Source: Rhina ancylostomus (Eukaryota). Taken from it: DNA of 59,456 nt. Shown here piece after piece: positions 4,275 to 59,284 of this stretch. How positions within the stretch are numbered: the first letter of the stretch is position 1; each line of letters starts with the position of its first letter. The translations under genes and the position numbers were made by a program. The notes under the pieces are model-generated. The model was given only the letters and a program-made list of their open reading frames with translations. It was not told the origin of the DNA and did not search any database. The stretch is taken from positions 22,368,168-22,427,623 of the forward strand of contig JARFYF010000054.1 of assembly GCA_030265395.1 (NCBI GenBank), read 5' to 3'.

Positions 4275-4400
4275 AAGGCCAAATGTTAGAAAGCTGAAAT
4301 GCAAATAAAAATTACTAAGTAGAGTCAGTAGACCAGGGAGTGCCTGTGGAGAGAGAAATGGAATTAATGTTTCAGGACAGTGACGTTTTGTCAGAACCAA
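4275..4400 (-). mobile_element. Old Penelope-derived terminal repeat fragment
   Basis: ctgtggagagagaaatggaattaatgtttcagg...gtcagaac resembles copies at 21535-21625 and 50840-50920. Confidence 0.55.
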
Positions 4401-12200: not shown

Positions 12201-12744
12201 TACTGTCCACGTGGAAGTTCTTCTGCGTGTCCACAGAATGGAAGCCCTTCAAAATTAAAAAGAACTCCATCAGGTCACCTCACTTTTCCAGAGAGGGGAA
12301 CCCCATTGAGTACCTGGAAGCTGTACCCTCATCATTATTGTGAATCATTTTCTCCGTCCTCCAGTGTTTTTCTGGTCTTTATTGAGACCAGAACTGTGTA
12401 AAAAATACTCTTAAATATCACTGAACCAAGGCTCTTCTTTTGAAGTCACTTCTCTGTTCTTGGATTCCAATGTAACTTTATCCAACTATGATGGATTGCA
12501 TTCCATTTTAAGTACAACCGTGGTATGGCAAGAGACAGCATGCCCAGTGGAATATTGGGTTGTCCACACCATTACTTGTTCCAGTCACCCTATAGCTGTG
12601 AAGAGGTTATTTATCTCAGATGGTTAGTGCAGAATTAGAGAGCAAAGGTTTACAGGAACATATCACAAGCTGCCCTGGAGGTTTTAATGGAGCTTCCTTC
12701 AAGAGAAGTGGTCTCAGGTAATTACTTAAAGTAACTGAAAATAA

Positions 12745-13380
12745 AAAAAAAGAGGATGCTTTAAATCTGAAATAAAAATATGAAGTGCAGGAAATACTTT
12801 GCAGATCAGGCAGTGTTAGTGGAGAGAGAAGCACAATTGACATTCCAGCTCAACGATCCTTCATAATAACTGCAAAAAGGAGAAAAATAAATGGGTTTTG
12901 TGGGGGAGAGATGGATAATACAAAGGGAATGTTGGTGATAGGGTAGAGACCAAAGTTGTCAAGGGAGTGCAATATTTTCTGTGTAGCGTAGTTAATAAGT
13001 GAATGAGGGCTGTTGGAGATGGAGAAAAAAATCTGAAGAACATGCTTGAACTCTGAGATACTGAGGCAGAAATGCAGCAGTGGCTGGAAATAAAAGAGAG
13101 AATCCTGGGAAAAAGCAGCAAATCAGGCAGCGCCTGTAGAGCACGAAAAGCAGTGAATGTTGCTCGCTACTTCCAACACAGAGATCAAAGGCTGGTCATC
13201 TGATATCGTTGAATTTAACATTGGGTCTCGAAGGTTACAACACATCCACACACTCACTGTGTTCTGACGTTTGGCTCCTTGATGGCCTCAACAGCAACAT
13301 GCAGCACGGAGTCCATTCATTTCAACAGAGGGGAATGGAGTGCACAGTGAGTTCATTCACTTCAGTGGAGGGGAATAAAT
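12745..13380 (-). mobile_element. Old Penelope-like element 3' remnant with terminal repeat copies
   Basis: Terminal repeat at 12750-12870 and again at about 13080-13160. gttgaatttaacattgggtctcgaaggttaca resembles the GIY-YIG C-terminal segment at 51240-51290. Confidence 0.55.
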
Positions 13381-13721
13381 GCATGGAATCTACTTATTAT
13401 TGTGATATTTGCATTTGTTGAATTATTTAACTTTATTTTTTTAATTGTTTAAAAATGTTCTTTAGTGTTTTATTTTCATTTGTTTGTGCTAAATCTTCAA
13501 CTTTTAAATTGATTCATTGTTTTTTTTTAATGGATTTTGAATTTCGGGGACATTAAGAAATGTTAGTCATCATGGACAGCTAGTTTAGCCAGCCATTCCT
13601 CGTATGCCTTCATATCGTACAACATGTGACCATTGCAAAGGATCTCATTGTTTAACATTGGGACCGTTACACGTAGCAGCAAATTCATAAAGGTTTGATT
13701 TTTCATGCAGTCATTCGTGAA

Positions 13722-13854
13722 AAACAAACTGCTGGAGTAACTCAGTGGGTCAGGCAGCATCTGTGGAGAGAAATGGACAGTCAGTGTTTCAGATTGAGAT
13801 CCTTCATCTGTTTGTGACTCCAGGTTCCAGCATCTGCAGTCTCTTGTGTCTCTG
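13722..13854. mobile_element. Short Penelope-derived element with a decayed hammerhead motif and probable TSD
   Basis: Flanked by gtcattcgtgaa (13710-13721) and gtcaatagtgaa (13855-13866), 10/12 identical. The minus strand reads CAGATGA-AGGATCTCAATCT-GAAACACT-GACTG. Confidence 0.7.
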
Positions 13855-14995: not shown

Positions 14996-15971
14996 TTGGC
15001 CTGGGAGAAAAATGTTCTGTAGTAATTGGGTGGGGACTTGTATCTTTCTGGCTTGTGCAGTAAATGCTGCCTTACTGGTNNNNNNNNNNNNNNNNNNNNN
15101 NNNNNNNNNNNNNNNNNNNNNNNNNNNNNNNNNNNNNNNNNNNNNNNNNNNNNNNNNNNNNNNNNNNNNNNNNNNNNNNACTGGTGGAGGAGAATGAAAC
15201 GTGTGTATTCATCCAAGTGGAATCTGAATCAGGGGAATTCTGTAAGATGGGTGTTGTCCAGTTCGCCCAATCCCTTAGGCTGTGACCCCTTCACAGACCC
15301 TGTAAGGCCAATTTTTTTACCCTGATTTATTTTTCCAAAATTATTGCTGAAGAGAAAATGAATCCATGACTCTCAGTTCCCTGTAAATACGATGTCCACA
15401 ACATACCGACTGAAAGCTGCAATCTCCTCAACAACTGGTTTTCCTTCATAATTTTGTATCGATAGATAGAGCTTGGCTCTCCCATTCATTTTGATTTTTG
15501 TTAACTTATATGCTCAGGGTGTTTGCATAGGTTCATTCAGCCTTCCAGATGTTACCTACCTGTTAAGTCATTGGGCTAGACAGGCACTGAATCCTGAAAT
15601 AAAAATTAAAACAATGAACATTGCATATGCCAAAAGTATAAACAGTTTAAAATAAACGGAAGAAATTTAGCTCCCTGATTAACAGTGAAGCTGATGGCAA
15701 TTCCCCTGTTTATATCTGCATGGTGCAGCAATCTCAGACAAGTGAATTTCCAAAGCTGGTGCACCCGGTCACCCAGGTAGTTTCTCGCAGTCTAGATCTT
15801 CTGATTCAAAGCTCCTGGATCTATTTCATAACTCCTGGTTTATACCTCTGTAATTTGGTGGAGATTTGGGACTTATGAGTAGAGGTACACATGTGAACTT
15901 CCACAGAGCTGATCAATGGTCTCAGGACTCCTATCCCTCTCATTCTCCTCAACCCACCACCTATTTTAAAG

Positions 15972-16062
15972 CAACAAACAATCTGCTGGAGGAACTCAGC
16001 AGGTCAAGCAGCATCTGCAGGGGTGGAGGGAGGAATGGTCGACGATCCAGATTGAAACCCTG
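15972..16062 (-). mobile_element. Short Penelope-derived terminal repeat with TSD
   Basis: caacaaacaatctgctggaggaactcagcaggtcaagcagcatctg, flanked by cctattttaaag (15960-15971) and cctattttagag (16063-16074). Confidence 0.75.
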
Positions 16063-17499
16063 CCTATTTTAGAGGCTGGATTTAGGGAAGTGTTTTAGGA
16101 GGAAATTATGTGGAAAATTCAGCTCCTCCTGCCCTCCTTGATTTCAATAAGTGCTTGTGCTACTTGACTGCATTTAAGGTGTAACATTACTTCAAATGGG
16201 ACCATTTTCCTGAGCTCAGTACTCCATTTGTTTTTAGTCAGTGGAAGGAAATAAAATGCAGCCGATTATGTCTTTAATTCTTTGTGTGCTAGGCAGCTTT
16301 ATTTGATTTAAGAGATACATATTTGATTTCCATTGTTCGTTGTCACGTTTGGTGGTGATGGAAAGTATATTTTGAAGAGGATTATGATAGCTGTTCAGCT
16401 TAATTGAGCTAATCCAGAGAATGAGTGCAAACTGAAGAGGAGAAGATATCTTACAAGATGCTGTTAATGTTTCTTACTGAAGTATTTTTACTACTAGGTA
16501 CTGGAAATATCAGTATTTTTTTATTTTCTGACTGCAGATGAATATTCTGAGTAACTAGTATGTTTGTGGCTGCTGTTTGTTACTTTAATAAATCTATCCT
16601 GTGGTTTGCAGCCTAATCATGGTCGATTGTGTTCTACTATATTAAGTTGAGAAAATATCAAGAGAGCTTGTAATGTCTCCTGTAAATTAAATTTAAGCAT
16701 CGTTGTTAGTACGTTGGACAGACTACATAATAAACTATCAGACAAATAACAAGTCACTCCAGTTTTTGGGAAGTTAAACTCCCTTACAGGACCGGTGTTT
16801 GCCACAGAGCACAAAAGAAATATTTGAGTCAAACCCAAAATATAACACCTGTCTCCAGTTAATGAGGATAGTCTGGTTCGTTAAATCAAAACTGGTCATT
16901 AGTGAGTGATTTATAGCAGCTGATTTTAGACAGTTTGTTCCAATAGTATTCTGCATCAGATTTTCAGCCCGAGAACTGACTTGCAAGGCCACATTGACAC
17001 AGATGAGTGGAGACAGAGAACTAACTGAGGTTCAGTACCTGAAGGAAGCAGATTGCTTCACTTTCCCATGTAATTCAGACAAGTTGAATCCTGGTGTGCA
17101 GCTGTTCATCATTAGTCTTGTTTATATGAAGGCTTTAATTCCACTTCCATCCCTATTAAGCTTTATTTAGCTTAATAAGAACTGTGCAAAATGGTATTTA
17201 GTCCTAATTAACATCAAATTCAAATCCTACTTTCCCTGAAGTTGGAGTAATTCTTTTAACCCGTTTGGTACCTGTTAGGGCGATTTGGCTCTTTGTCATT
17301 ACTTGTCCCCCAAATTTCAAAATGTTTCAGCTGTGCTATGTAGGCACACTCCTTGTTCACTTTTGTGGAAACTAAGCTTGTTCAAACACCAGTGAGATGA
17401 ACAATGGCAAAGGCTTTATTTGGTAATCTTGCTAGAGAGGATTATGGTTGGGGCTGTAGGCAACATTCACTCTTCTTCATGTAGTCTACCCTGCCTCTG

Positions 17500-21335: not shown

Positions 21336-21504
21336 GTTGTTTTTGTGACTAGTCATTGAGTCATGCAGCACAGAAACAGGCACTTCTCCCCTCTATGCTC
21401 ATGCCAACTATTGTACTCATCTATAATAATCCCATTTACCTGTAGCCTTCTCTTTTACTGTATTTTTTCATGTTGCATGGAATATATGTAAACCTTGAAT
21501 ATAA

Positions 21505-21692
21505 AACAAACTACAAATGCTGAAAATCTAAAATAAAAACAGAAAATGCTGGAAATACTCAACAGGACAGGCTGCATCTGTGGGAAGGGAAAGAGAGTTC
21601 ATGGTTCAAGTTGAAGGTCTTTCATTAACTCTGACTCTCTGCCCACAGATGTGGCCTGACCTGTTTGAGTATTTCCAGCATTTTCTGTTTTT
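21505..21692. repeat. Palindromic Penelope-derived element (long hairpin)
   Basis: 21535-21562 is the exact reverse complement of 21665-21692 (28 bp). The stem continues with few mismatches to about 60 bp. Confidence 0.85.
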
Positions 21693-22794
21693 GTATGAAT
21701 GATTCTTTACTGAATGATCAAACAATTAATTATTGCTCAGCAACCCTCTCTGTTCCTTAAGATACAAATTTGCTGTGTTTGGATTTTACTTACTTTAGAT
21801 TATTTTAAAATAAAAAGGATTTAATGTTTTAAACAGTTTGTTTATGACATCCAAAATCTCAACTGCATTTGTCAATCTTTATTCTGTTCTCACTAAAAGT
21901 TGATTGAAAGGTTAATTTTAAAAATATGCTTTTTATACCCTGGTTTGTTGTCTGTTAAAATTCTTCACTATGATCTTAACGGTGGCTCAAAAGTCGTTTG
22001 TTAGTTTTGAAGCCTTTTTGGCTGTCCTGAGGAGGTGGTAGTCGCTATTAAAATGCACATTTTGCAATGTATAAGTTGTAGCACCTGCTGTTTCACACCA
22101 AACAGCTGGTGATAGAATGATACAAGGCTTTTAAAACCTAGCACGTGTGTGCCAAATAAAAAGGGCATTGTTCTTTGAACTCTTTAACCTACAGTGGTTC
22201 CCACTGGAATACATTGCTGAGGGCACAAAAGGTTATGTTGTTAGCATAACTGCATGTGCCTGGCACAGAACTGCTTTTTTTGTCTCTTGATGTGTCACGT
22301 GATTTTTATTGAGTTTCACTGTGACAGATGTTTTTTGAGCACTAGGACCAATGTCTTCACACTTCAGTGGTCCTATAGAAAAAAAAGCTATTGGTTTTGA
22401 GTTGCTTTGGTGCTGTTGAATGCAAACTGAAAATAGCAAGCACACTGAGGCTGAGGTTTCTCTTTCCTTTGGGGCCAAGACTAAATCCATCCCAAGGGGA
22501 TTTTGGTGTTAAATCCTCTTGCATTTCTGCCAGTTGAACAGAGCCTGAAGGGAAATGTGTCTGGACAATTTCAGTCTAGCTCCCAGTGGGTGTGCGTCCA
22601 TAACACAGCCTCTGTGCTCAATCCTTCACTAACGGAGCAACCTTATGCAGACAGCTCATAATAATATGCTTTGTGAGAAACAAAAATAACATTTCAAATT
22701 TAGTACTTTTGTGTAATTACAGTTCAGGGGATCTGGTGTGTCTGGAAAAATTTGGGTTGCTTGTGACTTGTGGCTGCACTTCGAAGTATAATTA

Positions 22795-22950
22795 TAGAAT
22801 CACACAGCACAGATATAGGCCTTTTTAGCCTACCTCGTCCATGCCAACCATGATGCCTACCTATGCTAATCCCATTTGCCTGCATTTGGTCCATATATCT
22901 CCATGCCTTTCTTAGCTAAGTAATGTCCAACTTCCTTTAAGCATTCTATG
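22795..22950 (-). mobile_element. HER1/CR1 3' tail
   Basis: cacagcacagatataggcc...gtccatgccaacc...cccatttgcctgcatttggtccata. Confidence 0.7.
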
Positions 22951-22959
22951 TCCACTGCC

Positions 22960-23285
22960 TGCCTCGATCAACTTCCATCTTCTTCAGCCCTTTGTCACTT
23001 CGACCTCTCACGTTCTGGCTTCTGACATTATTCCCACTCTCCTCCCTCATCTGCCTATCACCACCCCCACCTGGATCCACTTATCATCCAGCTCTTGCTC
23101 CACCCCTTCCCTGCACATTTTTTATACTGGCTGTCTCCCCTCTGTCTCTCCAGTCCAGATAAAAGGTTGTGACTCGAAATGTCGACTGCCCATTTCCCTC
23201 CATAGATGCTGCCTGACCCGCTGAGCTACTCCAGTGCTTTTTGTATTGCTCCAGGTTTCCAGCATCTGCAGTCTCTTGTGTCTCT
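22960..23285 (+). mobile_element. Penelope-like element 3' UTR/terminal repeat with a core-mutated hammerhead motif (23151-23188)
   Basis: Pyrimidine-rich PLE 3' region, then CAGTC-CAGATAA-AAGGTTGTGACTC-GAAATGTC-GACTG, ending gcagtctcttgtgtctct. Confidence 0.75.
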
Positions 23286-24886: not shown

Positions 24887-25096
24887 AAAGACATCGCATT
24901 AAAACCCCATGAGCGCTTGGAGAAGCTTCAGAATCCCCTTGCAAAGAAAAAACGCAACGAACTGCAAAATGGCTTAAGTTTCCATGCCAACAAGAATAGG
25001 CACAGCTACCGCCATGGAAGTTCTGACAGGGAAAATGACCACAGCTTGAGTCACGGCCATGGAAAGCAGAAGCGCTTTCAGAAGAGGCACAGACAG
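24887..25096 (+). CDS. AUTS2: Internal coding exon (exon 2 equivalent) of an AUTS2-family gene (AUTS2/FBRSL1/FBRS); best match AUTS2
   Basis: Acceptor gccttttttattgcag (AG at 24885-24886) and donor CAG|gtagga at 25096/25097; 210 nt, phase 0/0. Translation [70 protein letters not shown] aligns end to end with recalled human AUTS2 exon 2 ([71 protein letters not shown]), with the same exon boundaries. KPHER is FBRSL1-like, so the paralog assignment is less certain than the family assignment. Confidence 0.88.
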
Positions 25097-29300: not shown

Positions 29301-29532
29301 TTTAGTGCTGTGACTTCTGAAAGGACAACATCGCCCAGCTTGCTTAATTTTGAATTTGTTTTGTATTTCCTGTTTACATTTGTCAAATCTTAGCTGATAA
29401 AGCCTGTGGTGAAAACACTTCCTTACTCCTGGAAGAAGGAGGCAGTAGGTTGATGGCATTGGTTTGGAGCAGCTTGTGTCTTATTGAATGGAGGGGCAGG
29501 CATGAGGAACTGAGAGGCCTTCTCCTGTCTGC

Positions 29533-29762
29533 AGCAACACAGACAAAATGCTGGAGGAACTCAGCAGATCAGGCAGCATCCATGGAGGGAATCAAACAGT
29601 TGACGTTTCGGGTCGAGACCCTTCATCAGGACAGTAAAGGCTCTCGACCTGAAATGTCGACTGTTAATTTCCCTCTGTAGATGTTGCCTGACCTGCTGAG
29701 TCCCTCCAGCATTTTGCGTGTGTTGCTCCAGATTTCCACCATCTGCAGAATCTCTTGTGTTT
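29533..29762. mobile_element. Inverted-pair Penelope-derived element
   Basis: The left arm (about 29535-29630) is the imperfect reverse complement of the right arm (about 29637-29727). Confidence 0.8.
29597..29634 (-). ncRNA. Minimal type I hammerhead ribozyme motif, core intact
   Basis: Minus strand: CTGTC-CTGATGA-A-GGGT(CTCG)ACCC-GAA-ACGT-C-AACTG. Conserved CUGANGA/GAAA/UH boxes, perfect stem II, palindromic ACGU in place of helix III; stem I has 2 mismatches. Confidence 0.7.
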
Positions 29763-30874
29763 CCTGCTTCCGTTTCTTATTTTCTTGACCTGATATCCAT
29801 TCACTCATTCTTAACTTGATAAAGGTGACTTTATCTGTTCTCAATGACAGATAACAACACATGCAGTGTCTCCCTTATTAGCTGGTGAGCTTGGCTATGT
29901 GACAGCTGGTGTGTTTTTAGAAACTGTACATCGTGTACCTTCCTCCATCCCAAAGCATTGTCAATGGCTGCAAGTAAAATGGACAACTAACTGAAGCTGC
30001 TGTAATTGTGTGGTGTTTAATTAGTGTTTACCCAGTCTTCCCCGAAACTTAGGCAAGCTATAACTGTGGCAGCACAGTGTGGGAGGTTGGGAGTCAGGGG
30101 GTGGGGGGAATATTCAGAGTAGAGTGAACAGATGGAATGGAGTGGAGCTGACTGAGCTTTCCCAGCACGCATTGACAGCATCAGTAACAAGCAATTTACA
30201 ACGTGCTATTTACAGCTTGGGTTACAGTTCTCCATTGGTTCAGAGTGCTCTTTAGCAGCTGCTTTCATTAATAACTTTCTGTGAGCTGTTAATTGAACAT
30301 GGAAATGTGTGTGGGAGGGGTTCCTCAATGGCAGGCAATCTTGTTTCAATGAAGAAGAAAAGACGTGTAGTATTGTAATGGTAATGGAGGCAGCTATCAC
30401 ATGCTCCCTTTCATGACTGAACAACCACAAGTGACAGGCGCTGCCGGCTGCAATAAAACGCGGCATGGCTCCCTGCAATTCAAGGAACTACTGGACGGCG
30501 CAGATTAGTTTACCATGTAATGCGAGGTTCTGCAGCCAGAGAACTAATCATTCTGTGATGAAGCAACGGATGTTGCGTTCGCTTTGTGGACTCACAATAT
30601 GCAAGGTGTTTGCTGTTATGGAATCTGTTCCAATTCCCCTTGTGGTCTCGGTGATCGGTGCATCAACTTAATACTTACTGTTGTAACATTCTACTCCGAA
30701 AGAGGAAAGGTGGTCACATCCAAGTGATGGACTTGTGTGGGCTGCTCAAGATTTCATTCTGGCTCCTGAGACATCCATCCACTGTTGCAGCAGTTTTAAT
30801 GGGTGATGGCACTATGGGAAGCTTGGGATGGTTCTTCCCCTTTACTGGGGAAGTGGTGCAGCCTGTCCGTAGAG

Positions 30875-31135
30875 TTATAGAGAGATACATCATGGAAACA
30901 GACCCTTCAGCTGACAAATCCATGCTAACCATCAAGCAAGCATCTTTTACTGACACTATCCAAGCCCATTTTAATCTTCCCTCATTTGCAAGAAATCCCC
31001 CCAGATTATACCACCCATCTACACTTTGGGGGTAATTTACTGAGGACAAGTAAGCTGCCAACTGACACATCTTCAGGATGTGGGAGGGAGCTGGAGCACC
31101 CAGAGGGAACTCTATTAGGATGTCCAGAGTCAGCA
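30875..31135 (-). mobile_element. HE1-like SINE
   Basis: Tail catggaaacagacccttcagc and V-domain-like ggatgtgggagggagctggagcacccagagggaac. Confidence 0.65.
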
Positions 31136-31199: not shown

Positions 31200-32340
31200 T
31201 TTCATAATACATATTTATAAAGCATCCTTACATCACAGAAGATACTAACGCCCTTCACAGAAGGGTTAGCCAACTGAATCAGCCAGCTCGGGAGATTTTA
31301 GAGCTGATGAGTGGTACCTGGCCCAAAGGATTGTGTTTAAAAAGGAGAAAAACAAGGTAGAAATGCCGAGATTGGGGGGGTGGGGGTTAGTTCTTGTGCT
31401 TGGGTCTTGATATTGCAAGGCATGGCCACCAATAAATGCAGCAATTAAATTCAGTGATGGGCAACAGGCCAGGGTAGGGGTAGTATCTAGGAGGATTTTG
31501 GGCTGCAGGATATGACAGAGGTAGGAGGAGCAAGGCCTTGGAAAGATTTGTAGATAAAGTTCTAATGAAAGGTCATCAACCTGTCTTATCGGCCCTGTTT
31601 CTCTCTCAATGGATGCTGTCTGACCTGCTGAGTATTTACAGCATCACCTGTTTTTATTTTAAAATTATGTCTTCATGGGACCCAATGTACTTTGTGAATG
31701 CAAGGTTGTTGGGACTTGGCATGGGTTAGGGCATAGATTTTGGATGGCTCCAGGTTCACAGAGGGTAAATCAAGGGAGGGCCTCAGAATTATCAAATTGA
31801 GGTAACAAATGCATGGGTGATGATTTCAACAGTGAGTGAATTTGGCCAGGCTGGAGTTGAATGAAGATACGTAGGTAAAAATCAGCAGCTTTAGTGATGG
31901 CATGGTAGTATGTCTGCCTGTCATCTTGGATTCAGTTATGATACCAGAATACTATGTGGCATAGTTCAGCTTCGGACGGTCCAGAGGAAGAGGGATACAG
32001 CCTGATTTTGTGGCAGTGCTTTTGATCTTCCCAACACCGAGCTGGAAGAAATCTCTGCTCAGACAACCAGTGTGACAGTTTGGAGTTAGTGGAGAGATTT
32101 AGAGATGGGGATGAGGTAAAGTCGATGCCATCCGCATACTTAAAGAAACTGACACTGCACTTATGGATAATGTTGCAGATGGGTGGCTTGCTGCTGGTTA
32201 AGAGGAGGTTGCCAAAGATAGATCCTTGGGAGACACGAGTGATAACCATAGAGGAATGAGAAGAAAACCATTGCCAGTAGTTCTCCAGCTTGCAAAGTGG
32301 GGATGAGGATGGAATCAGGTGGCAGTATCCTCCCCCCACA
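31200..32340 (-). mobile_element. L2-clade LINE fragment containing an old PLE terminal repeat (about 31557-31662)
   Basis: Minus ORF 31932-32339 contains VSQGSIFGNLLL...IIHKCSVSFFKYADG, matching the RT motifs PQGS/YADD. Confidence 0.7.
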
Positions 32341-33614: not shown

Positions 33615-33855
33615 ATAAACCATAGAGTTGCACAGCAGAGAAATGGGCCCTTCGGTCCAGCATGTACATACTGATCTTTTTGCCCATCTGCACTAACCCC
33701 ATTTGCCGTATCCCTCTACGCCTTTCCTGTCCAAGCACCTATCTAAATGTCTCTTAAACGTAGCAATTGTATCTGATTCCAGCAAGCTCCAGACATCAAC
33801 CACTCTCCATTTAGGGGAAAAAAAACTTTATCCTCAAATCCCCTTTATAACTCCT
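33615..33855 (-). mobile_element. HER1/CR1 3' fragment
   Basis: catagagttgcacagcagagaaatgggcccttcggtcc...ctatctaaatgtctcttaaacg. Confidence 0.7.
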
Positions 33856-34251: not shown

Positions 34252-34429
34252 GGGGCAACACGTTAGCATAGTGGTTAGCACGATGCTCTTACAACGCCAG
34301 CGATTGGGATTCGATACCCGTCACTGTCTGTAAGGAGTTTGTACGTTCTCCCGTGTCTGTGTGGGTTTCCTACGGGTGCTCCGGTTTCCTCCCGAATTCT
34401 AAAGACGTACGGGTAGGTTAATTTGGGGT
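34252..34429 (+). mobile_element. Young tRNA-derived V-SINE, truncated by a gap
   Basis: A-box TAGCATAGTGG, B-box GATTCGATACC, V-domain gggtttcctacgggtgctccggtttcctccc; CpGs retained. Confidence 0.8.
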
Positions 34430-34818
34430 NNNNNNNNNNNNNNNNNNNNNNNNNNNNNNNNNNNNNNNNNNNNNNNNNNNNNNNNNNNNNNNNNNNNNNN
34501 NNNNNNNNNNNNNNNNNNNNNNNNNNNNNGTGTCTCAAGGGGGAGAGGCACCCGACTCTGCAGACTCGTAAATAAACGGTTTTCTTGTTTCCACGACTTT
34601 GTCTCTAGCATGGTGATTGTGAGCACGGATTATATCTCACACCAACCATCAAGAACCCATCTATATTAATCTCATTTACCGCACTTGGTCAGTAGCTGTC
34701 TAGGCATCTGCAATTCTAGAAATTTGGGACCCTCAGTGCAATTAGAGAAGAATGGTAATAGGCAAACCAGGAAAAGGTAAGTTTCCAATAGATTGGAAAC
34801 CCTTTCCCTCCACCTTTT

Positions 34819-34940
34819 TGAAGGGTCTCGACCTAAAACGTTGACAGTCCATTTGTCTCCATCGATGCTGCCTGATTTTCTGAGTTCTGCCAGCACCTTT
34901 AGTGTTGCTCCAGATTCCAGCATCTGCAGTCTCTTGTGTT
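34819..34940 (+). mobile_element. 5'-truncated Penelope-derived terminal repeat with a 14-bp TSD
   Basis: gtttccaatagatt at 34781-34794 and 34938-34951. The insert begins inside the hammerhead motif (tgaagggtctcgacctaaaacgttgacag). Confidence 0.8.
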
Positions 34941-37900
34941 TCCAATAGATTATCCCTTCTCGGTCAAATTGACAATTTCATTTTTTACCCAAATGATGCA
35001 TTTTCTTGCCTAATCACTTAAATGTCATGTAAGTTTTAAAGGTCTATTTGTAAGAGCTACATGGAGAATTTTTAAAGGAGGACAGACCATTTGAAAGTAC
35101 ATGCCCACCTTCATAAGGATTTCTTTTTCTTAAAAGTGAGAGTTGCCAGTAAGTAAAATTTGCAAAAACCTTGTATCAAGAGTGCTGATGAGGGGGAATA
35201 AATGCCAGGAAAAACAGAACATTCTGGAAATGGAAACTGCAATATGCAACTGAAGCAAGGGGTTGCTGGACTTCAAACAGAGCAACCATATTGAATAAAC
35301 ATTGTGACAGCATAGATATTAATCTGTAGTGCCCAGGGAGCCATTTCAGTCCCTCTGTTCAAGGACTTGATCCACTTAGTGTTTTCAAAATTTGAAACAA
35401 GAGACAAGTGAGTTCTTGAAATAATAATCTTTTTATTTTATTTTTTTGATTCTGCAGAACTCCCAATAGATATGCAGATGGCTTGTTGCCAGACCTTTTG
35501 ATAATTTCAAGTTCGCCATTGCTGCCTGCAATATTAGAACCAATTGACTTTCCTATTCACCTTCTAAAGATTTATAGGCTGGGAGCTTGTGGTCAGTGAT
35601 GATGCAGTGTTCCTTGTGGTTCATTATGCTTGCTGCTGCCCACAGGTAATTGGTAAGGGTTTAAGTTGCAACTTGCAAGGATGATAGTTTTATTTTGACC
35701 TGCGACCCTCCACACTAGAACCAGAGTATGCATGAGTAGAGAAAGCAGCATTGGCAAACCCTTGCCAAGCTCCGTAGACTCCAAACCAGAATTATAAATT
35801 GAAATTTTAAAGAACTTTAAGTACTGGAAATTCTCATCATATCAGGCAGCATTTGTATGGCAAAAGGCTTAGTTAATATGCTGGATCAATGCCCTTTCAA
35901 TAAAACTACAAAAATTTGAATATTTAATACAATTTAAGATCATGGACATAAAGCAAGTAATAAGCAAAACAAAAATGTAATTATAATGGATAAGAGTAAA
36001 AGAATTTAAAAAAGAATCTATTCCTATATTCCTCAAAATAAGAAAAAAATGAGATCCCAGCTTTGTAAAATTAAGTATTCAATGATAATTGAATGATATC
36101 CAATGATATTGTTTAGCTACAACTTAATTCATCACATTGTTAAAAACTCACTCACATCTGAATGCACCAGCCCTAATCTTCTTGGTTTGCTTTATGGACA
36201 GGTAATGGGTCAGTCAGACAGTTTTGTGCCCTTGCTATCTTTTAATCCTAAGTTTAGGATTCAGGTTGTGGTTTACAGATACATATTGGGGGAAAAGGCA
36301 AAAGGGACGGCAGCTTCCTGATTTTCGTGTTCAACTGAGCATGTGCAGACATTGAATTTGCTTCCTAATAGTGAATACTGACAGTCTCACTATTATTCCA
36401 ATTGCAAAATCCAGCTGCAGTATGCTTCCAGGTTTCCTGATACCCCAACTTCCCTGCTCATTTTCATTTGATGATCTTCAATCATCATTCATTCTTCATG
36501 AGGAAGGTTTACCCGTAAGTAATATACCTGCATGAACATCACAGCCAAATAATGTTCTGTTCTTACTTAGTCCTTGACACACATGCACATTTCAATACAA
36601 GTCACCAGACCACATCCAAGAAAATGGATTATGCATACGATGTTTCCCTAACTGAAATCAACCAATCCGGCATATACTTGTGATTGAAAGACCAGGAACT
36701 TTCTACTTGCTGGTAGTTCTAATTCCTTTTGTCTCCGGAATGAGGTCATATTCTATCTGGCAGAAGAACACTCCTATTCTTTCATAATTATGTTGCACAG
36801 TTACAGTCTAAATCTATCATGGTGGGAAGGCAAATGTTCCTTTTTGGGCATTCACGCTTCAAAGCAAATTGGATAAGATATGTAGGGGACAAATCTGAGC
36901 TAATTCAAGAAGAAAGAATGTACTTATAGTGCATTGCGTTTATATTAATATACAAGCACAATCTCATGAATGGTTTAGCATGAAGTATTGATTATCCTTA
37001 TTAGCATGAGTTTTATGCATTAAAGCCCATCTGTTTCTATTCAATATGTAAAATCTATTTTATGGTGCCTTACCTATTTACAACTAGAGTCATAGATTAT
37101 TGAGTTTCTCAGATCCATATATATACCTTACCAGCTTTGATTCTAAGAAAAGGTTTGTCTAACTGACTGCTGTATCCATCTGAGATTTCCGCTGGAGGGA
37201 AACAGTCTATAAAGTTTTGTGGGGTTCCAACTTTATCCATACTGGAATGTTGAGCAGCAGCTCCCAGGCTCCTGATAGTCATGTGGTAGTTTGGATTAAT
37301 TCAGAGCAGCACTTACAGGTCCTGCTGCAGGTTTAGTTGATAGAGGATGAGATTGAGGATGGGTGGCCTGGCCACTCCTGATGTTATTGACATTGTGGGC
37401 AGGGCTCTGAGTCACTGACCCAATTGGAGCCAATAATTGCAATGTTCTCCACTTTACACTGTCTTGAGTACATTCAGTGCTGGCTGTGAGGAACTTTCAT
37501 GCGGCCAAGTTCTCTTAAAGTGCAATGTTTCCCTTATAGTTTCTATTTGTGCTGCTGGCTTGACTGGAGTCAACCATTCCTGCACAGACTAGAAATTGAA
37601 AGACTAGAATTCCTACCACTTACCAGTTGATTTTAGAAGGATCTGGCGAAGGGTCTTCAACTTGAAATAAGACATCTGTTTCTCTTTTCACTGATGTTGC
37701 ATGACCTGTTTGAGTGTTTTCCATTCTTTATGTGCAAGAGCAATGGTAGTAATGTTGAGCCATCATTGTGTATACGGTGACTGCACGCATAAAATGTTCA
37801 TTGAATTAAAGTATATCCCCATCTACTGGCACTTGAATGGGGATTGGGTTGGAAAAAGTCTTCATTGTCATGGCTGCTCTTCAAAGTTGGCCATGAGGTG

Positions 37901-38404: not shown

Positions 38405-38530
38405 CAAATCAGATACTGCAGATGATGGAAGTCTGAAATAAAATCAGAAAATTCCAGAAAATATTCAGGCAGCATGTCTGAAGAGAGAGCAACAGAAAAG
38501 TTAACTTGGTATGATCCCTTTATCAACACA
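38405..38530 (-). mobile_element. Old Penelope-derived terminal repeat
   Basis: atactgcagatgatggaagtctgaaataaaatcagaaaatt...caggcagcat. Confidence 0.6.
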
Positions 38531-38753
38531 GCTCCTGTCGTGCTGTCTGTACACTTTTTCCTCCAAATATAGAGGCCAATGGAGGATAGAAATTTAAATA
38601 TCTCTGCAGGGGATCAACAAGCTGATAAGAAGGGGCAGCAACAATTACAGGAGCTCTAGAGTCTTCAAAATGGAAGGTGGTGACGCTGGTGGTGTTCAGA
38701 GGTGCGCTGGGTGTTGGAATTTGAGAGAAGTGTGACTGAAGGTACGTTGACGA

Positions 38754-39058
38754 AGCTAGTAGAGCTGCTGCCTCACAGCTCCAGTGACCCAGGTTCAATC
38801 CTGACCTTGGGTGCTGTCTGTGTGGGTTTGCACGCTCTCCCTGTGATACTGCAGGCTTTCTCCCACGTCCCAAAAATGTGCAGGTTGGTAAATTAATCGG
38901 CGGCTTTAAGTTGCTGCTAGTGTGTGGGTGAGTTATGGAATCTTGGGGGTGTTAATGGGAACACGAGGAATAAATGGGATTATTGTAAAAGGGTGGTTGA
39001 TGTCAGTATGGACTCGGTGGGCTAAAGGGCCTATTTCCATGCTGTATCATTCTATGAC
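38754..39058 (+). mobile_element. HE1-like V-SINE
   Basis: B-box GGTTCAATCC, V-domain-like core, and HER1-type tail ggtgggctaaagggcctatttccatgctgtatcattctatga. Confidence 0.8.
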
Positions 39059-40440: not shown

Positions 40441-40745
40441 CATCATGGAGACGCAGCACAGAAAAAGGCCCAATGGCTCACCATCCACCACCTTTTTGCA
40501 CTAATCCTACATTAATATAGTTTTTTGTTCTCCCCACATTCTCATCAATTCCCTCCAGATTCTACTGTTCACCTGCACACTGGTTAACCTACCGATCCAA
40601 TGTCTTTGAAATGTAAGAGGAAACTGGAACACCCTGACAGAGAGAATGTGCATACTCCACACAGATACCACCTGCAGTCATGATTGAACTCAGTATCCTG
40701 GTGGTGTGGGGCAGCAGCTCCACTGGGTGTCCCACAGTGCTGCCC
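40441..40745 (-). mobile_element. HE1-like V-SINE
   Basis: Reverse-complement homolog of 38754-39058. Confidence 0.75.
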
Positions 40746-42019: not shown

Positions 42020-42815
42020 GATAGAACATGGAACGATACATCACAGGAACAGGCCATTTGGCCCATGATGTGCTGACCTTGATGCCAATCCAAACTCATC
42101 CCATCTGCCTGCACGTGGTCTATTATCCATTCATTCCCTGGTTGTTCATGTGCCTGTCCAAATGCCTCTTGAAAATTGTTATTGCCTCTGCTTCCACCAT
42201 TTCTCCTGGCAGCCCCTTCCAGACACCGACCACTTACCGTGTTTTTAAAAAAAAACCTTGCCTCACAAATCTGCTTTAAACTTTCCCACTGTCATTTTTC
42301 ATATTTGATATTTCCACCCTGGGATAAAAAGACTTTATCTACCCTTCTCATAATTTTCTATACTTGCATCAGATCGTCCCTCAGCCTCTGACCCTCCAGG
42401 GAAAACTAGGGGCAGGAATGGTAGTGTAGCGGTTAGCGTAACGCTATTACGGCACCAGCTACCTGGGTTCAATTCCGGTATGGAGTTTGTATGTTCTCCC
42501 CGTGACTGCGTGGGTTTCCTCCGGGTGCTCCGGTTTCCTCCCACATTCCAAAGATGTATGGGTTAGGAAGTTGTGGGCGTGCTGCCAGCTGCCCCCAGAA
42601 CATTCTACGCAATGATGCATTTCACTGTGTGTTTTGATGTACATGCGACTAATGAAGAAATTTTATCTTCAAGGTAATGGTCTCTAATCCAGACAACATC
42701 CTGGTGAACCTCTTTTGCACCCCCTCCAAAGCTTCCACATTCTGTAATGCAGTGAACAGAACTGCATGCAATACTCCAAATGTGGCCTAACCAAAGTTCG
42801 ATGCAGCTGAAACTT
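42020..42815 (-). mobile_element. HER1/CR1 3' fragment interrupted by a V-SINE
   Basis: Minus ORF 42684-42905 contains RTLVRPHLEYCMQFCS, the CR1 ORF2 motif LVRPHLEY; tail at 42020-42400. Confidence 0.8.
42409..42669 (+). mobile_element. tRNA-derived V-SINE with a Rex1-like tail
   Basis: A-box TAGTGTAGCGG, B-box GGTTCAATTCC (42466-42476), V-domain, and tail tttcactgtgtgttttgatgtacatgcgactaat. Confidence 0.8.
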
Positions 42816-44349: not shown

Positions 44350-45917
44350 AAGCAATCACCCCAGCACCAAGACATCACCTGCAGGATTCCTCAAGGCAGC
44401 GAATTAGACCCAAACATCTTCCACTCCTTCATCAATGACCTTCGTTCCATCATAACGTCAGAAGTGGAGATGTTCGCAAGTGCAATTTACAAATTGCATT
44501 TGTAAATCCTTGGTAAATGAAGCAGTCCCTGTCTGTGTGCAGCAAGACCCTGACAGTTTATAAGCATGGACTGATAAGTGGCAAGTAACATTCACATTAC
44601 AGAAGTGTCAAGCAATGACCGTCTCCAACAGGAGAAAGTCGAAATATTTACTCTAACCCAACAAACAATCTGCTGAAGGAACTCGGGCCGAGCAGCATCT
44701 GTGGGAGGAAAGGAATCCTTGACATTTTGGGTTGAAACCTGCATCAGGACTGAGAGCAGAGGGGTGTGATGGACAGTATGNNNNNNNNNNNNNNNNNNNN
44801 NNNNNNTCCATCTATCATTCGCCTACCACTGTCTCCCAAGTCCACCTCCCCTATCTGGCACAACCTGTCTGTTATCTTGCACCCCTCCTCAGTGCACCAA
44901 TCACCTTGGGCTCCGTTCTCACTACTGCTCTTCCCCTCTTTATACTGGCCATCTCCACTCTCAGTCCTGATGCAGGGTTTTGACTCGAAACATCAACAGT
45001 TCCTTTCCCCCACCCCCCACCACGGATGCTGCTCGACCCGCTGAGTTCCTTCAGCAGATTGTTGCTCCAGATTCCAGCATCAACAGCCTCTTGTGTCTCC
45101 ACTTACCCTAGACGTTCAATGGCATTGCCATCACCGAATCCCCCACCATCAACATTCTGGTCACTATTGACCAGGTGCTGAACAGGACCAGCCACAGAAA
45201 TTAGTGGCTACAAGAGCAGATTAAACTCTGGGTACCCTGCGGCAAGTGACCTGCCTACTGACAGTGTGCGGCCCTTCTACCGTCAACAAGGCACAAGTCA
45301 CGAGCTCTCCACTTGCCTGGGGTGAGTACAGTAGCAGCAATTCTCAAGAAAGATTGGCACCATTCAGGATAATGCAACCTGTGTTATTGGTACTGCATCA
45401 ACCACCCTAACCATTCATGCCCTCCACTACAGGGGCTACAGTGGCTGTAATGTGTACTGTCTACAAAATGTGTGTCATTACCAGGCTAAGTTACTCTGAC
45501 AGCACCTCCCAAAGAAAGGCACAGAAGGATACAAACCTCATGCTGCCAAATGGGATTACTGTAGATGGGCAAGATGCTTGACATGGACATGTGGGCCAAA
45601 GGGTCTCTTTCTGTCCTGTACAACTTTGACACTAAGCCTCATCTCCACCATCAAGAAAGACGAGGGCAGCAGATGGATGGGAATACCACTACCTCCAAAC
45701 AGCACACCATCCTGACTTGGAAATCAGCCCTTCCTTCATTGGTGCTGGGTCTGAATCCTGCAGACTCCCTAACCAACAGCACTGTTGAAGTACCATCATC
45801 AGAAGTACTGTAGTGTTTGAGAAGATGGCTTACCGCAATCTTCTCAAGGGCAGTAAGGGATGGGGAATAGATGTTGGCTGCCCTGGAGATGCGCAGATCC
45901 CGAAAATGAATAAAAAG
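44350..45917 (+). mobile_element. CR1-type LINE RT-to-3' fragment with two nested insertions
   Basis: ORF 44290-44505 contains IPQGSELDPNIFHSFINDLRSIITSEVEMFA (RT motifs) and ends in the family 3' UTR. Nested PLE element at 44656-45099 and HER1 tail at about 45511-45633. Confidence 0.8.
44656..45099. mobile_element. Inverted-pair Penelope-derived element, CTGATGCA hammerhead variant
   Basis: Hammerhead-like motifs at about 44716-44752 (-) and 44962-44999 (+). Possible TSD tatttactcta / cacttacccta (8/11). Confidence 0.75.
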
Positions 45918-46004
45918 AAATTGTGCACTCAGTCTCACAAATAAGGACAAGGCAATGAATAGATATCTTTTCATGATATTGATTGAGAGGTAACCCTGGA
46001 ACAC

Positions 46005-46512
46005 ACAGTCATAGAGCATGGATACATTGTCCTTCAGCCCATCGAGTTCCAACTGTTGATTGACTATCCATTTCTACTAATCCCATTGTATTCTCCCCAC
46101 TATTTCCATCGATGCATCGCAGATTCTACCACTCACCTTTACGCTATTGGCAATTTGCAGTGGCCAATTAACTTATTACCCTGCACAACTTTGGGATGCA
46201 GGAGGAAACCCACACAGTCGAAGGGAGAAAGTGCAAACTCCACACAGAGCGCCAGAGGTCAGGATGGCTCAACCAGCAGTGCCAAATTCCTTTCGGTTGC
46301 ACCTCTCCCAAGTTCCAACACGCAGCACATCCCTGAACTCAACCACCATCATCGCCCTCCACCTTGCAGCCTCTTTACACTCCTGTAACTGCTGTTGGCC
46401 CTCCAACAAGAGAAATTATTGGGTCTGGAAACAATGACAGTCGTCAGGATTGAACCCAGGTTACTGGAGCTGTGAGGCAGCAGTCCCACGAGCTGTGCTA
46501 TCGTGCTATCCC
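46005..46512 (-). mobile_element. HE1-like SINE split by about 170 bp of other sequence
   Basis: Tail and V-domain at 46005-46265; tRNA head at 46440-46512; gtcaggat occurs at both break points. Confidence 0.65.
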
Positions 46513-46684: not shown

Positions 46685-47535
46685 ATTGGAATTGGTTTAT
46701 TATCATCAAATACCAAAGTACAGTGAAAAACTTGTCGTGCATACCATTCATACAGAACAATTCACTGCACGCTGCATTGAAATAATACAAGGTAAAACAA
46801 TAATAGAATGCAGAATAAAGCAAAGCAGTGTTGGATCTGGAGATGATATTGTCCAGAAGGTTCTTTGGAACTCAAGAATGATCCTCAAGTCTTGTGGTTA
46901 CAGCCATTTTATTAGATGTTCACGACAAAGAAATGACAGTAAAAAAACTGCGAGCAAGTAACACAGCAGCAAGTAACTAGGAGTAATTAACTCTAACAAA
47001 GAACCTGTCTCATGGTCTTTTTTTTATATACTGAAAACTGGTTCAAGCTGGATAGATAAGGGAATCTGCTCTGATAAGAACAGCCTGTGAAACAAGAACA
47101 GCCTGTGAAACAAGGACAGCCTTGATTTACACTGCCATGATATCTCAGGGTTACAGACAAAGGAATTACAGAAATACAGAACCAGCTGTACTACAAATTA
47201 CTGAAAATCAACTGAACATTCACAGGCAAACAGGTGATTATACAAACATATAAGCAAGCATAAAGAAAGTTAAACTACAAGAAAAATAACAATTTAGACC
47301 CCAATCCAACAACATGTACAGAAAAAGTGCAGATAGACAAGAAGGTGCAAGATCATCACGAGGTGGACTGTGAGGTCTAGAGTCCATCTTATTGTACCTG
47401 GGAACCGTTCAATAGCCTCATAACAGCGAGATAGAAGCTGTCCTTGAGCCTGGTGGTCCGTGCCTTAGGAGCAGACAGGAGCATGTGCCCCGCCCCCTTC
47501 CTGAAGTCAATGACCAGCTCTTTTGTTAGGCAGGT
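46685..47535 (-). mobile_element. Rex1/Babar-like LINE 3' fragment interrupted by a solo LTR
   Basis: Homologous to 51946-52240 on both sides of the insertion. Minus ORF contains TKELVIDFRK and RTTRLKDSFY. Confidence 0.75.
46829..47311 (-). mobile_element. Probable solo LTR (483 bp)
   Basis: TG...CA ends with an 8-bp inverted repeat (TGTTGGAT/ATCCAACA). On the minus strand, 18-bp tandem repeats come first, then TATATAAA (about 47023-47030), then AATAAA (about 46908-46913), i.e. U3-R-U5 order. It cleanly interrupts a LINE fragment. Confidence 0.7.
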
Positions 47536-49628: not shown

Positions 49629-50834
49629 TATTTTGAAGCCTGCCACAACCAAGAACAGCTTGTGTTGGACTTCCAGACAAAGCCATTTCAATAGTTCAAC
49701 CATTTTTGATGTAATATCAAACAGATGTTGAGCCTAACCAAGTGGTTAATTGAATTATCTCGGGTTATTTTGAGCATTTTGCAGTATGATCCTTGAATAT
49801 GCAGTAACTGTGGTGGGGCTCTACAACAATGATCCAAGATATTTCATTTAATGTACTGTATTATGTCTTTAGTAAATAGTTTAAAATAGTGTTCACTGAT
49901 ATTGCCATTCAAGACATAATTTACTTATAATTCCATGACTTTTTTTGTGAGAGATCCTCTCTAATATTGAGTTGTTTGGTCACTCAGACAGCAGGCCAAA
50001 ATGTACTCAGCTTTTGCCAGTGGTTCACAAGAAAACTGCCAGTAAGATGCCCATTAATGTGCCAGTTGGGCTGATCACCCACTCTGCCACTGGACTCAGC
50101 ACTGATCCAGGGACTAAGCTGAAGGACCATGTATGCTTTGAAAGTGACCCCTAAACTTTATGCCTGCCATAGTTGGTGACCGAATGCAGACCAATTCAGA
50201 GGAATGGGATCATCTCCTTGGATGATAAAGCTAAGTGGTTTGATTTTAAAAAAACTGTATTTAATATAAATGTTTTAAACATCACATATGTTAAATGGGC
50301 TGTGATATTGGTTTAACTTTAATTTTTTAATATATTTTCAAAATTATTTAAATCTATTACAATTGTTTTTATTTGTCCTGATTCCAGGTTCACTGAGAAA
50401 CAGTTGATAAGACCTTTCACTGTATGAACCACCGAAAGGCCATCAGGGCAGTTCAGGGTGTGACCTCAGGATCTGCTGCCTGAGGCCTGGTTGCCACTCA
50501 TGGCCAGCTCTGCTCTGTGGGATGGCCATAGCAGTGAGTCAATGAATTCGGTTAGACTCAGGGGGCAATAAATAATTAGTGGGACCAGAAGATTTGCATG
50601 GGATTGGGGAGAGTGAGGGGCTGGGTTGAATGTGATTGCTGAAAGGTCCAACCTGTGATGACGCGAACTGTGAAGCCACTTGTTTCACCAGATCTGGAGT
50701 TAGATTGGAGAGTCTATTCATGCCTGCATCATATGTGCAGACTGTTTTGTGTGCCAATGATAGTGGACAAAGTAAATTGAAATGATCAGAATGTCATTCA
50801 AGTGTCTGAATCAGACAAAATTAAATTCTACGAA

Positions 50835-51935
50835 CATAAAATAAACCACAAAATGATGGAAGTACTTGGCAGATCAGGCTGCTTCTGTGGGAAGAGAAAC
50901 AGAGTTAATATTTCAGGCCTGTGAAGGAGAATAAAGAAGTTTCAGGGAGGATACAGGAGAGAGGATGTCTCTGGGGTAAAACAGGGGTGGTCATGGGGAT
51001 AAGCTGTAGGTAGGTGATCTGGTCATGGGTCAATGGGAGCTCTTAGAGAGTGAGAGCAGAAACAAAACAACATGGATTGTAGGAGTTCAAAATACAGAGC
51101 AGGAAGACGTTCCCGGCAGGTGAAGCTGGGCATGTCTTCCATTCCCAGAAAAAAATGAAAAAAAAAGATTTAAAAAAAAACAAGCTGAGCCAATATCACA
51201 GATTGATGACTGATACAGAGAGAAATGAAGTTACAGGAAGTTATAGAATTCAATACTGAGTCCAGAAGGCTGCAATATGCCCAGACCCAAGATGAGGTGT
51301 TGATGCTCAAGCTTGCATTGGGCCTTGTAACAATTCAGGAGCCAGGAAACTTGGGCTCGCCCCTGCAGACTGAACACGGGTGCTTCGTAAAGCAGTCACC
51401 CAAACTGCAATTGGTTTTTCCAGTGTAGAAGAAACCACATTGTGAACGCTGAATGCAGGACACCAGATTGGAAGAAGTGCAAACGAATCACTGCTTCATC
51501 TGGAAAGATTATTTGGGTCCCCTGATAGTGGGAAAGGACAAATGTTGCATTGCCTGCGGTTGTGAAGGGAAGTAACGCAAGAAGGTGGTTGGTGGGAATG
51601 GAAGAGGCACCAGGGAGTCATGAAGGGAACTGTCATTGTGCAATGCTGGAAGGGGAGGAGAGGAGAAGATGTCTGGTGGTGAAATCTCTTTGAAGGCAGC
51701 AGAAATTGGGGAGAATGATTTGTTGAATGCAGAGGTTAGTGGGGTGGAGGGTGAGAACCAGGGGAACTCCACCTGTTATCCCCCCCTGGAGACGGTGTGG
51801 GAACAGAGCCACAGAAAATGGATGAGATGCAGTCAAAGGCTTTGTTAACAATGGTGGCTGTTAAGCTCCAGTTCAGGAAGAAGGAAGACAGTTCAGTTAT
51901 ATGACTTATTGGTGTTTTTAATCTATCACCAATAA
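50835..51935 (-). mobile_element. Penelope-like element remnant: linker, GIY-YIG endonuclease and terminal repeat (pseudogenised)
   Basis: Minus-strand translations: VPLVLTLHPTNLCIQQII; FVCTSSNLVSCIQRSQCGFFYTGKTNCSLGDCFTKH (degenerate VY...YIG...R...H); CKLEHQHLILGLGILQPSGLSIEFYN (PxGLN motif). Stops and frameshifts present. Ends in the terminal-repeat family at 50835-50920. Confidence 0.85.
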
Positions 51936-57814: not shown

Positions 57815-58005
57815 CTGTGCCCACCCCACCTCTCCCCCCGTTTGTCCACCTACCACTGCCCTGCTGTTCCCTCCTATATATTGGGCTTCCCCTTTTTCTA
57901 TCTTCAGTCCTGAAGAAGGGTCCTGACCTGAAACGTTGACTACCTGCTTTTCTCCACGGATACTGCCTGGCCTGCTGAGCTCCTCCAGCATCATAGTGTT
58001 TATCA
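57815..58005 (+). mobile_element. Penelope-like element 3' end / terminal repeat
   Basis: Pyrimidine-rich PLE 3' region after the gap, then the hammerhead motif, then gctgagctcctccagcatc. Confidence 0.75.
57906..57941 (+). ncRNA. Minimal type I hammerhead ribozyme motif, core intact, sense to the host pre-mRNA
   Basis: AGTC-CTGAAGA-A-GGGT(CCTG)ACCT-GAA-ACGT-T-GACT: 4-bp stem I, 4-bp stem II (one G-U), palindromic ACGU, GUU triplet. Confidence 0.65.
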
Positions 58006-58867: not shown

Positions 58868-59082
58868 ATGAACAAAAAATGCTGGAAATATTTAAGTCAG
58901 GTAGCATCTGTCAAGAGACAAACAGAGTTAACAATTTCACGTCGCTGAGCTTCCATCAGAATTTTGGTGTAGAATTGATGAAAGCTTATCAAGCTGAAAC
59001 AAAAACAGCAGAAGCTCAGTTTCTTTCTCTGCAGGTGCTGCCTGACCTACTGTGTATTTCCAGCTTCACCAGTTTTATTTTG
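58868..59082. mobile_element. Older inverted-pair Penelope-derived element
   Basis: gctggaaata...gtcaggtagcatctg on the left versus caggtgctgcctgac...tatttccagc on the right. Hammerhead-like TTGATGA-A-AGCTT(ATC)AAGCT-GAAAC at 58975-59000. Confidence 0.7.
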
Positions 59083-59284
59083 CTTTTTGATCATTTTCAG
59101 TGGAAGTGGGTGAGTGAAATCCAAACATTACTGCTCCACAAGAGTTGCTTCTAATTGGAACTTTGTGCTAAACCAGCAGGTGTCTGTTTTTGCACCTCCA
59201 GGCAAACTTAAATTATAGAGAAATTAGGCCAAAAATTGCACAGCAAATTCAAACAAGCGTGTCTTCTTAGCCTCATGCTCATTT

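Follow-up and report, generated by a model that had tools for sequence, protein, structure and literature searches.

Does a short repeat scattered through the window, by which we mean the whole 59,456-nucleotide stretch of Rhina ancylostomus DNA analysed here, carry a hammerhead ribozyme, and if so, what kind of element brought it there? The initial annotation had singled out one copy, at 29597..29634 on the minus strand, and had read the repeat as a ribozyme-bearing, non-autonomous Penelope-like element (PLE) family spread through a neurodevelopmental gene. We examined the motif, its copies and their surroundings in turn.

Structure and chance expectation of the flagged motif

Read on the minus strand from 29634 to 29597, the flagged copy is letter-exact with the earlier reading and holds all the hammerhead core boxes. 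It comprises the helix I 5' arm (29634-29630), CUGAUGA (29629-29623), an extra A (29622), stem II (29621-29610), GAAA (29609-29606), C-G-U-C (29605-29602) and the helix I 3' arm (29601-29597). The CUGANGA, GAAA and UH boxes stand in type I order, as they do at 57910 on the plus strand, and the extra nucleotide after A9, the G10.1-C11.1 pair and a stem II of at least 4 bp are all present. Stem II had been called perfect; its pairing stands as 4 bp around a CUCG loop but does not extend to a fifth pair, because that pair would close a 2-nt loop. The palindrome in place of helix III (15.1-16.1) was also as described, ACGU in this copy. Helix I is broken here: its closing pair is C.A, a CpG-type change, and its fourth pair is U.U. 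Overall, it was right to read the motif as a PLE-like minimal type I hammerhead; its pattern agrees with the >80% consensus that the PMC4209133 supplement gives for PLE minimal hammerheads.

A descriptor that asked for the core, at least 4 bp in stem II, the N-N' palindrome and UH found two sites in the window, 29629 (minus) and 57910 (plus). In 300 dinucleotide shuffles of the window the same descriptor, without helix I, gave a mean of 0.023 sites, with at least one site in 7/300 and two sites in 0/300. When helix I of at least 3 bp was added, 57910 alone passed (shuffles, 0/300); the flagged copy did not, because its helix I is broken.

It is highly improbable that the hammerhead likeness arose by chance, given that two core matches, or one full match, occurred in 0/300 shuffles, that the majority sequences of two subfamilies (S1 and S2, below) each spell a complete motif with different, compensated pairs, and that the motif occupies its known place in a PLE. 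What speaks for chance is that an Rfam scan returned no hammerhead family at E ≤ 10 (nine unrelated sub-threshold matches), that isolated motifs (n = 4) folded with z of −0.04 to 0.91 and took the hammerhead form in none, and that covariation among copies did not exceed shuffles.

Census of the repeat family and its two subfamilies

A profile built from 10 window copies, with segments accepted at E ≤ 1, found 22 segments in the window (20 at E ≤ 0.01), equivalent to ~17 insertions (Table 1), and no segments in the reversed window. All eight of the other places named in the initial annotation (8/8) belong to this family; besides 57906-57941, none of the remaining seven has an intact core. Counted by loci it is the window's most common repeat, as had been claimed, with 18 segments against 11 and 8 in the two families that follow it; in bases covered it ranks second (2257 vs 2470).

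Two subfamilies, S1 and S2, were set by eye before leave-one-out identities were compared, and in that comparison 20/20 arms were nearer to their own group, one marginally. The S1 and S2 majorities (7 and 8 copies counted) are each a complete minimal hammerhead, and helix I closes the core in both as well as at 57910. They differ at the helix I closing pair (C-G vs U-A), at one loop nucleotide, in GUC vs GUU and at the stem II base (G-C vs A-U), where G-C is assigned to S1 by taking the T at 11.1 (3 C, 4 T) for a product of CpG decay.

Table 1 Features of the window, with copies of the hammerhead-bearing family.
Feature	Position	Strand	Remarks
Flagged minimal type I hammerhead motif (S1)	29597..29634	−	Predicted scissile bond 29602/29601
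Sense arm, 5'-truncated PLE 3' end	29533..29642	−	Begins ~6-11 nt upstream of core
Second copy, inverted head-to-head	29637..29763	+	Begins inside hammerhead, without CUGAUGA; bears tail
Optional 36-nt 3' tail	29728..29763	+	Plus arm only; same end point in 5/5 S1 tail-bearing copies
Broken PLE ORF remnant: RT thumb end, Zn-finger linker, GIY-YIG	about 51232..51918	−	Frameshifts, stops
Family 3' end with 3' UTR, in one ~1.1 kb element with the ORF remnant above (S2)	50810..51231	−	Family match E 3e-12
Copy with the window's only fully intact minimal hammerhead	57815..58002	+	Core at 57910; host-gene sense; 5' end hidden by N gap
S1 copy with tail and 200-300 nt upstream 3' UTR	22856..23284	+	Core mutated; 5' limit uncertain, overlaps another repeat up to 22940
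S1 head-to-head pair around N gap (44781-44806)	44651..45099		Tail on plus arm only
S1 copy (minus) from hammerhead core, with inverted tail-only arm	13718..13854		
S2 head-to-head pair, junction within hammerhead	21500..21696		
S2 head-to-head pair, both arms from near core	58869..59085		11-bp target duplication
S1 copy with tail, first box lost	34795..34942	+	11-14-bp target duplication
S1 copy, begins after first box	15965..16066	−	9-bp target duplication
S2 copy	12736..12892	−	Upstream weakly like UTR of ORF-bearing copy
Decayed S2 copy	31549..31665	+	
Decayed S2 copy	35819..35909	−	
Decayed S2 copy	37640..37709	+	
Decayed S2 copy	4325..4398	−	
Strongly decayed copy with tail, subfamily marginal	38411..38525	−	E 0.086
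Short decayed copy	13094..13162	−	E 0.004
Host coding exon, AG...GT bounded	24887..25096	+	Only one found; not part of element

Other repeats were also recorded in the window. The second family has 11 segments and 2470 bases (30874-31110, 34253-34414, 38631-39058, 40604-40741, 42410-42672, 46002-46507, 48358-48675, 49342-49625 and 59282-59456). It looks SINE-like; ARAGORN found no tRNA in it. A third family has eight segments (602-658, 4970-5152, 7320-7589, 21350-21451, 22789-22940, 33621-33770, 42023-42294 and 45498-45625), and its frame at 7459-7683 (minus) looks like a CR1-type LINE 3' end. Another minus-strand frame flanks an N gap (52110-52625 and 53236-53400), with related pieces at 47326-47466, 46687-46820 and 51950-52086, and its translation looks to us like a degraded non-LTR reverse transcriptase. 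Pfam gave 0/5 on five such repeat-derived frames, including 7459-7683 and the 52110-53400 region. A purine-rich, imperfectly repeated block occupies positions 1-700 (segments 46-200, 319-401 and 446-527).

Linkage of the repeat to a Penelope-like reading frame

That the repeat derives from a PLE, as first proposed, is borne out by its linkage to an RT/Zn-linker/GIY-YIG frame. One family end (50917-50810, minus) lies ~300 nt downstream of a broken frame on the same strand. The remnant of this frame, at 51237-51918, is collinear in four segments with a whale shark (Rhincodon) protein bearing RVT_1 and GIY-YIG (E 4e-27) and matches a Hypanus protein at E 2e-30. When named proteins were compared with the window, 14/15 matched at the ORF remnant only and 1/15 gave no match. 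A 50-aa piece of the remnant scored 0.93 with GIY-YIG clusters in Atlas and recovered 16 proteins by HMMER, one of which led to RT + GIY-YIG proteins of Rhincodon, Stegostoma, Hypanus, Chiloscyllium and Mobula. Pfam did not detect GIY-YIG in three frames of the remnant, a word-index protein search with the 50-aa piece returned no match, and bacterial and archaeal genomes scanned for stray eukaryotic contigs with PLE protein yielded none. The combination of RT with a C-terminal GIY-YIG (CCHH) was found through the remnant and its relatives together, the catalytic RT core itself being absent from the window.

The shark and ray relatives have a CxxxxCxxC linker, which is degraded in the window remnant, and two cysteines between the endonuclease halves. 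According to the available text of PMC8557442, these features mark Neptune/Nematis, and of the two only Neptune is reported in vertebrates in the accessible part of bioRxiv 10.64898/2026.07.22.740005. Called by these motifs rather than from an RT tree, the element is probably Neptune-type.

The sole ORF-linked copy in the window is S2 (its 50810..51231 part is 80% identical to S2 and 62% to S1), and a deletion has removed the initial half of its hammerhead; the flagged copy is S1. For S1, the zebra shark protein P0022 (GIY-YIG, RT motifs) continues for ~120 codons past the endonuclease, through the 3' UTR, and 10/11 residues at its end are identical to the translated flagged motif, the sole such match among 104 proteins (E 3e-4; pairwise E 2e-4). 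The read-through portion of P0022 further aligns upstream of the 23.1 kb copy (22856..23284) at E 0.006, in low-complexity UTR. Similarity between the UTRs of copies is weak (z 2.6-3.7); the 12736..12892 upstream region compared with the ORF-bearing copy's UTR gave z 3.7 (1/200 shuffles), as one of 17 comparisons. Both subfamilies therefore appear tied to the ORF, S1 less firmly, through the 11-residue match in another species and the E 0.006 match.

P0022, P0024 and P0091 are shark/ray gene models with PLE frames or read-through of PLE 3' UTR. Two of the three carry host-gene names, which suggests that they are annotation chimeras.

The element runs in the order RT, Zn-finger linker, GIY-YIG, a pyrimidine-rich UTR of ~300-370 nt, hammerhead, ~70 nt and an optional 36-nt tail, and its 3' end is what recurs as the short repeat. 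The best explanation, to which we give a probability of about 0.88, is that the motif is a minimal hammerhead in the pLTR of an elasmobranch Neptune-type Penelope-like retrotransposon.

Anatomy of the insertions

The flagged motif forms the apex of an inverted repeat (arms 29528-29623 and 29637-29732, 96 nt, 83% complementary), a setting absent from the initial annotation. The insertion at 29.5-29.8 kb is made up of two 5'-truncated copies in head-to-head orientation, and only one arm carries the tail; the sense arm (29533..29642, minus) stops at the short 3' end, without a tail. No convincing target duplication was found when one was looked for at this insertion. Head-to-head arrangement was seen in 5 of ~17 insertions (13.7, 21.6, 29.6, 44.8 and 58.9 kb). 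Two discrete 3' ends occur among S1 copies; the five tail-bearing arms share their end point, and in S1 inverted pairs one arm has the tail. Three of the 17 sites examined showed a target duplication (9, 11 and 11-14 bp); at the other 14/17 none was convincing.

A palindrome of this sort might instead be a MITE, a DNA transposon with terminal inverted repeats in which the hammerhead-like centre is incidental, and both the 205-bp inverted repeat with its 83% complementary arms and the four further inverted pairs would suit such an origin. We find it scarcely credible, since most insertions have a single arm, the junctions differ, the tail is confined to one arm, the target duplications vary from 9 to 14 bp and the linkage of the sequence to RT-GIY-YIG contradicts it. 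Across the copies we found neither the constant terminal inverted repeats nor the short duplication of set length expected of MITEs. In the parts of PMC8557442 and PMC3846280 available to us, 5' truncation, an inverted copy, a one-sided tail and variable target duplication are described as PLE features.

Two details of individual copies were also recorded. The S2 palindrome at 21535-21692 is old; the outer 28 bp of its arms are 100% complementary and the inner arms 79%, an identity that may reflect arm-to-arm conversion or chance. In the stretch 34781-34800, a short inverted version of the left target-duplication copy stands between that copy and the start of the element.

The 29.5-29.8 kb region had a predicted fold of −152.8 kcal/mol (z −14.9), in which the stem II pair probability was ~1e-12, and forcing stem II together with unpaired boxes cost at least 22.6 kcal/mol. 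The corresponding hairpin in plus-strand pre-mRNA was −151.8 kcal/mol. Cleavage by the flagged copy is unlikely. It is most likely an inert fossil, mutated and held in a hairpin. Its broken helix I, its antisense orientation relative to the host gene and the long hairpin into which any read-through RNA would fold all point that way.

How the copies may have been made

By analogy with other PLEs, the PLE protein (GIY-YIG) would nick DNA and reverse transcription would begin at one of two internal sites, giving a tail or no tail. Uncleaved RNA would be copied, usually stopping after 100-300 nt, and self-priming would often produce the head-to-head inversion. In model positions (core at 19, cut ~46), 18 of the 22 segments start at ≤23, another three at 36-42 and the last at 83, none of them at the scissile position. 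This agrees with PMC11167929, whose accessible text gives unprocessed RNA as the main substrate and has the hammerhead cleaving only with protein. The ACGU duplex (4 bp) is worth ~−1.7 kcal/mol, and the parent-RNA hammerhead would be a weak ribozyme requiring a partner copy or the PLE protein. No head-to-tail tandem of two hammerheads was found in the window. After insertion, the genomic copies would decay neutrally.

Decay of the copies

All departures at four CpG sites (17/17, among 28 dinucleotides) were to TG, CA or TA, the deamination type, and the genomic copies are decaying as neutral DNA, by CpG loss. Core identity was 82% in S1 and 75% in S2, vs 87.5% and 82% for the 3' block, the latter being favoured by the way in which copies were found. 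Covariation across 14 decayed copies was no higher than in shuffles (122/500 at least as high), this set leaving out 6/20 arms of the larger alignment that miss part of the motif or have indels in it. The initial annotation had offered a lack of excess core conservation as one of the grounds for refuting the ribozyme, and among the window copies no such excess was seen. Neutral decay after insertion predicts the same lack, which therefore argues against activity of the copies and not against a ribozyme in their parent.

Truncated ends or a short master

The copies do not establish a separate non-autonomous family. The series of 5' ends is nested and reaches as far as the ORF, and the copies look like the 5'-truncated or inverted ends of autonomous elements. 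Among hammerhead-bearing arms, 13/18 are without the pyrimidine-rich upstream UTR and 5/18 have it (0.74-0.79 pyrimidine; 1.3% of background at ≥0.76). In most alignments of the S1 short arms, similarity starts at ~−13 to +9 of the core, and inverted junctions lie at or inside the hammerhead in 4/5 cases; the 5' boundaries of S2 are noisy, and the sample is small. This cluster of 5' ends near the core could reflect a structure-linked stop, run-off at the transcript 5' end or a short master.

It is possible, though we think it unlikely, that most short copies came from a 130-165 nt non-autonomous master with its start at the hammerhead, mobilised in trans by the PLE protein, or from 5'-leader run-off of the PLE transcript (solo pLTR). 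The 13/18 arms without upstream UTR and the S1 arms beginning near the core would fit, as would two statements in the consulted parts of the literature, that sequence can be mobilised in trans by pLTRs on their own (PMC3846280) and that retrozymes are proposed as non-autonomous PLE derivatives (bioRxiv 10.64898/2026.07.22.740005). However, the short arms share no 5' nucleotide and grade into copies of 150, >300 and 1100 nt, the S2 boundaries are noisy, no tRNA-like head was found, and the window is without a head-to-tail tandem of two hammerheads.

Truncation of autonomous Neptune-type elements remains our preferred reading of the series. More tentatively, and with less than even odds by a wide margin, the hammerhead in elasmobranch Neptune elements might set where copying stops or folds back; the motif would then have been selected across at least two subfamily waves, and the short hammerhead-plus-tail unit would be a self-defined product or SINE-like. 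If so, this unit would be very abundant, and shark and ray genomes would form a large natural data set on PLE hammerheads. With two compensated subfamilies and 5' ends at the motif, genome-wide breakpoint counts could test the ribozyme's effect on insertions.

Host gene and the intact copy at 57.9 kb

The exon at 24887-25096 is 91% identical to a hypothetical protein of Scyliorhinus torazame (catshark), whose next exon falls outside the window; the copies are thus probably intronic. The elasmobranch origin supposed in the initial annotation is supported. We presume that the host gene resembles the AUTS2/FBRSL1 family. No gene name was obtained from Pfam, Atlas or the supplements of PMC5555464 and PMC9454499. 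The supposed tie between the repeat and a neurodevelopmental gene came down to intronic position, with the gene name unconfirmed. Segment orientation was unbiased (9 plus and 13 minus of 22, p = 0.52), and any effect on the host gene is probably small, at most long intronic hairpins in plus-strand pre-mRNA.

One or more copies, the best candidate being 57906-57941 (plus), might nevertheless be active or co-opted intronic ribozymes acting on host pre-mRNA. The 57910 copy (4-bp helix I, GUU) passes the full descriptor in host sense, its hammerhead lies only ~7 kcal/mol from the local optimum fold, and domesticated intronic hammerheads exist in amniotes according to the portion of PMC6155905 consulted. 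We nonetheless judge this very unlikely. At the base of its stem II a G.U stands where the conserved pair is G10.1-C11.1, the copy lacks helix III or a nearby partner, its predicted helix pair probabilities are ~0.01 or less, and in the accessible text of PMC4209133 monomeric minimal hammerheads gave no cleavage. There is no strand bias, and one intact core among ~18 decayed arms requires no selection.

Comparison with known systems

Minimal hammerheads in PLEs are already known from PMC4209133, whose available parts place them in Xena, Poseidon and Neptune of bony fishes, lamprey, coelacanth, frog, turtle and snake; its Table S1 and Figure S3 include no cartilaginous fish. The window family shares with them CUGANGA, the extra nucleotide, G10.1-C11.1 (in the S1 majority), GAAA, the palindromic N-N', UH and a short helix I, as well as a distribution mostly as dispersed singles with opposite-strand pairs close together. 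It differs in the short stem II of the window copies (4-5 bp) and in the A-U at 10.1-11.1 of the S2 majority.

Non-LTR retrozymes, as presented in the consulted portions of Li et al. (bioRxiv 10.64898/2026.07.22.740005) and Cervera and De la Pena 2020 (PMC7229834), are likewise non-coding, carry a type I hammerhead and are pLTR-related, and they are reported from one chondrichthyan genome with a mean unit of 363 bp. They are, however, head-to-tail tandems in which each unit has a hammerhead, whereas the window copies are single or head-to-head and 70-300 nt long. We rejected identity with retrozymes on the absence of head-to-tail hammerhead units from the window. Since one chondrichthyan genome was screened, the supplement of the 2026 preprint may already name the present family. 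Our literature search, to which Repbase, Dfam and most subscription papers were external, found no description of a hammerhead in this elasmobranch repeat. PLEs are also abundant in shark introns, as in the whale shark expansion (bioRxiv 10.1101/443036; PMC8455134), in the accessible text of which no ribozyme is mentioned.

Poseidon PAc of Anolis carolinensis (Frangieh et al. 2024) offers a close parallel in the parts of PMC11167929 consulted, with a hammerhead ~100-130 nt upstream of two tail-separated ends and insertions from uncleaved RNA, a likeness to the window family. PAc belongs to a different clade without the Zn linker (per the available text of PMC8557442), its ORF starts within the hammerhead, and protein-assisted cleavage has been shown for it.

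The Neptune PLEs of Craig et al. 2021, as described in the available text of PMC8557442, share the RT, the CX2-5CxxC linker, the C-terminal GIY-YIG with CCHH, heavy 5' truncation, an inverted 5' copy, a hammerhead near the 3' end and a 30-40 bp tail at one end. Unlike them, the window sites show no microsatellite targeting (by eye) and the window, which holds no full-length copy, has no tandem pLTR structure. The role of PLE hammerheads is still open in the consulted parts of PMC8557442 and PMC11167929. The present results add a very common repeat of sharks and rays to the carriers of PLE minimal hammerheads and identify it as probable Neptune-type 3' ends, which could be mislabelled as MITEs or miRNA-like hairpins.
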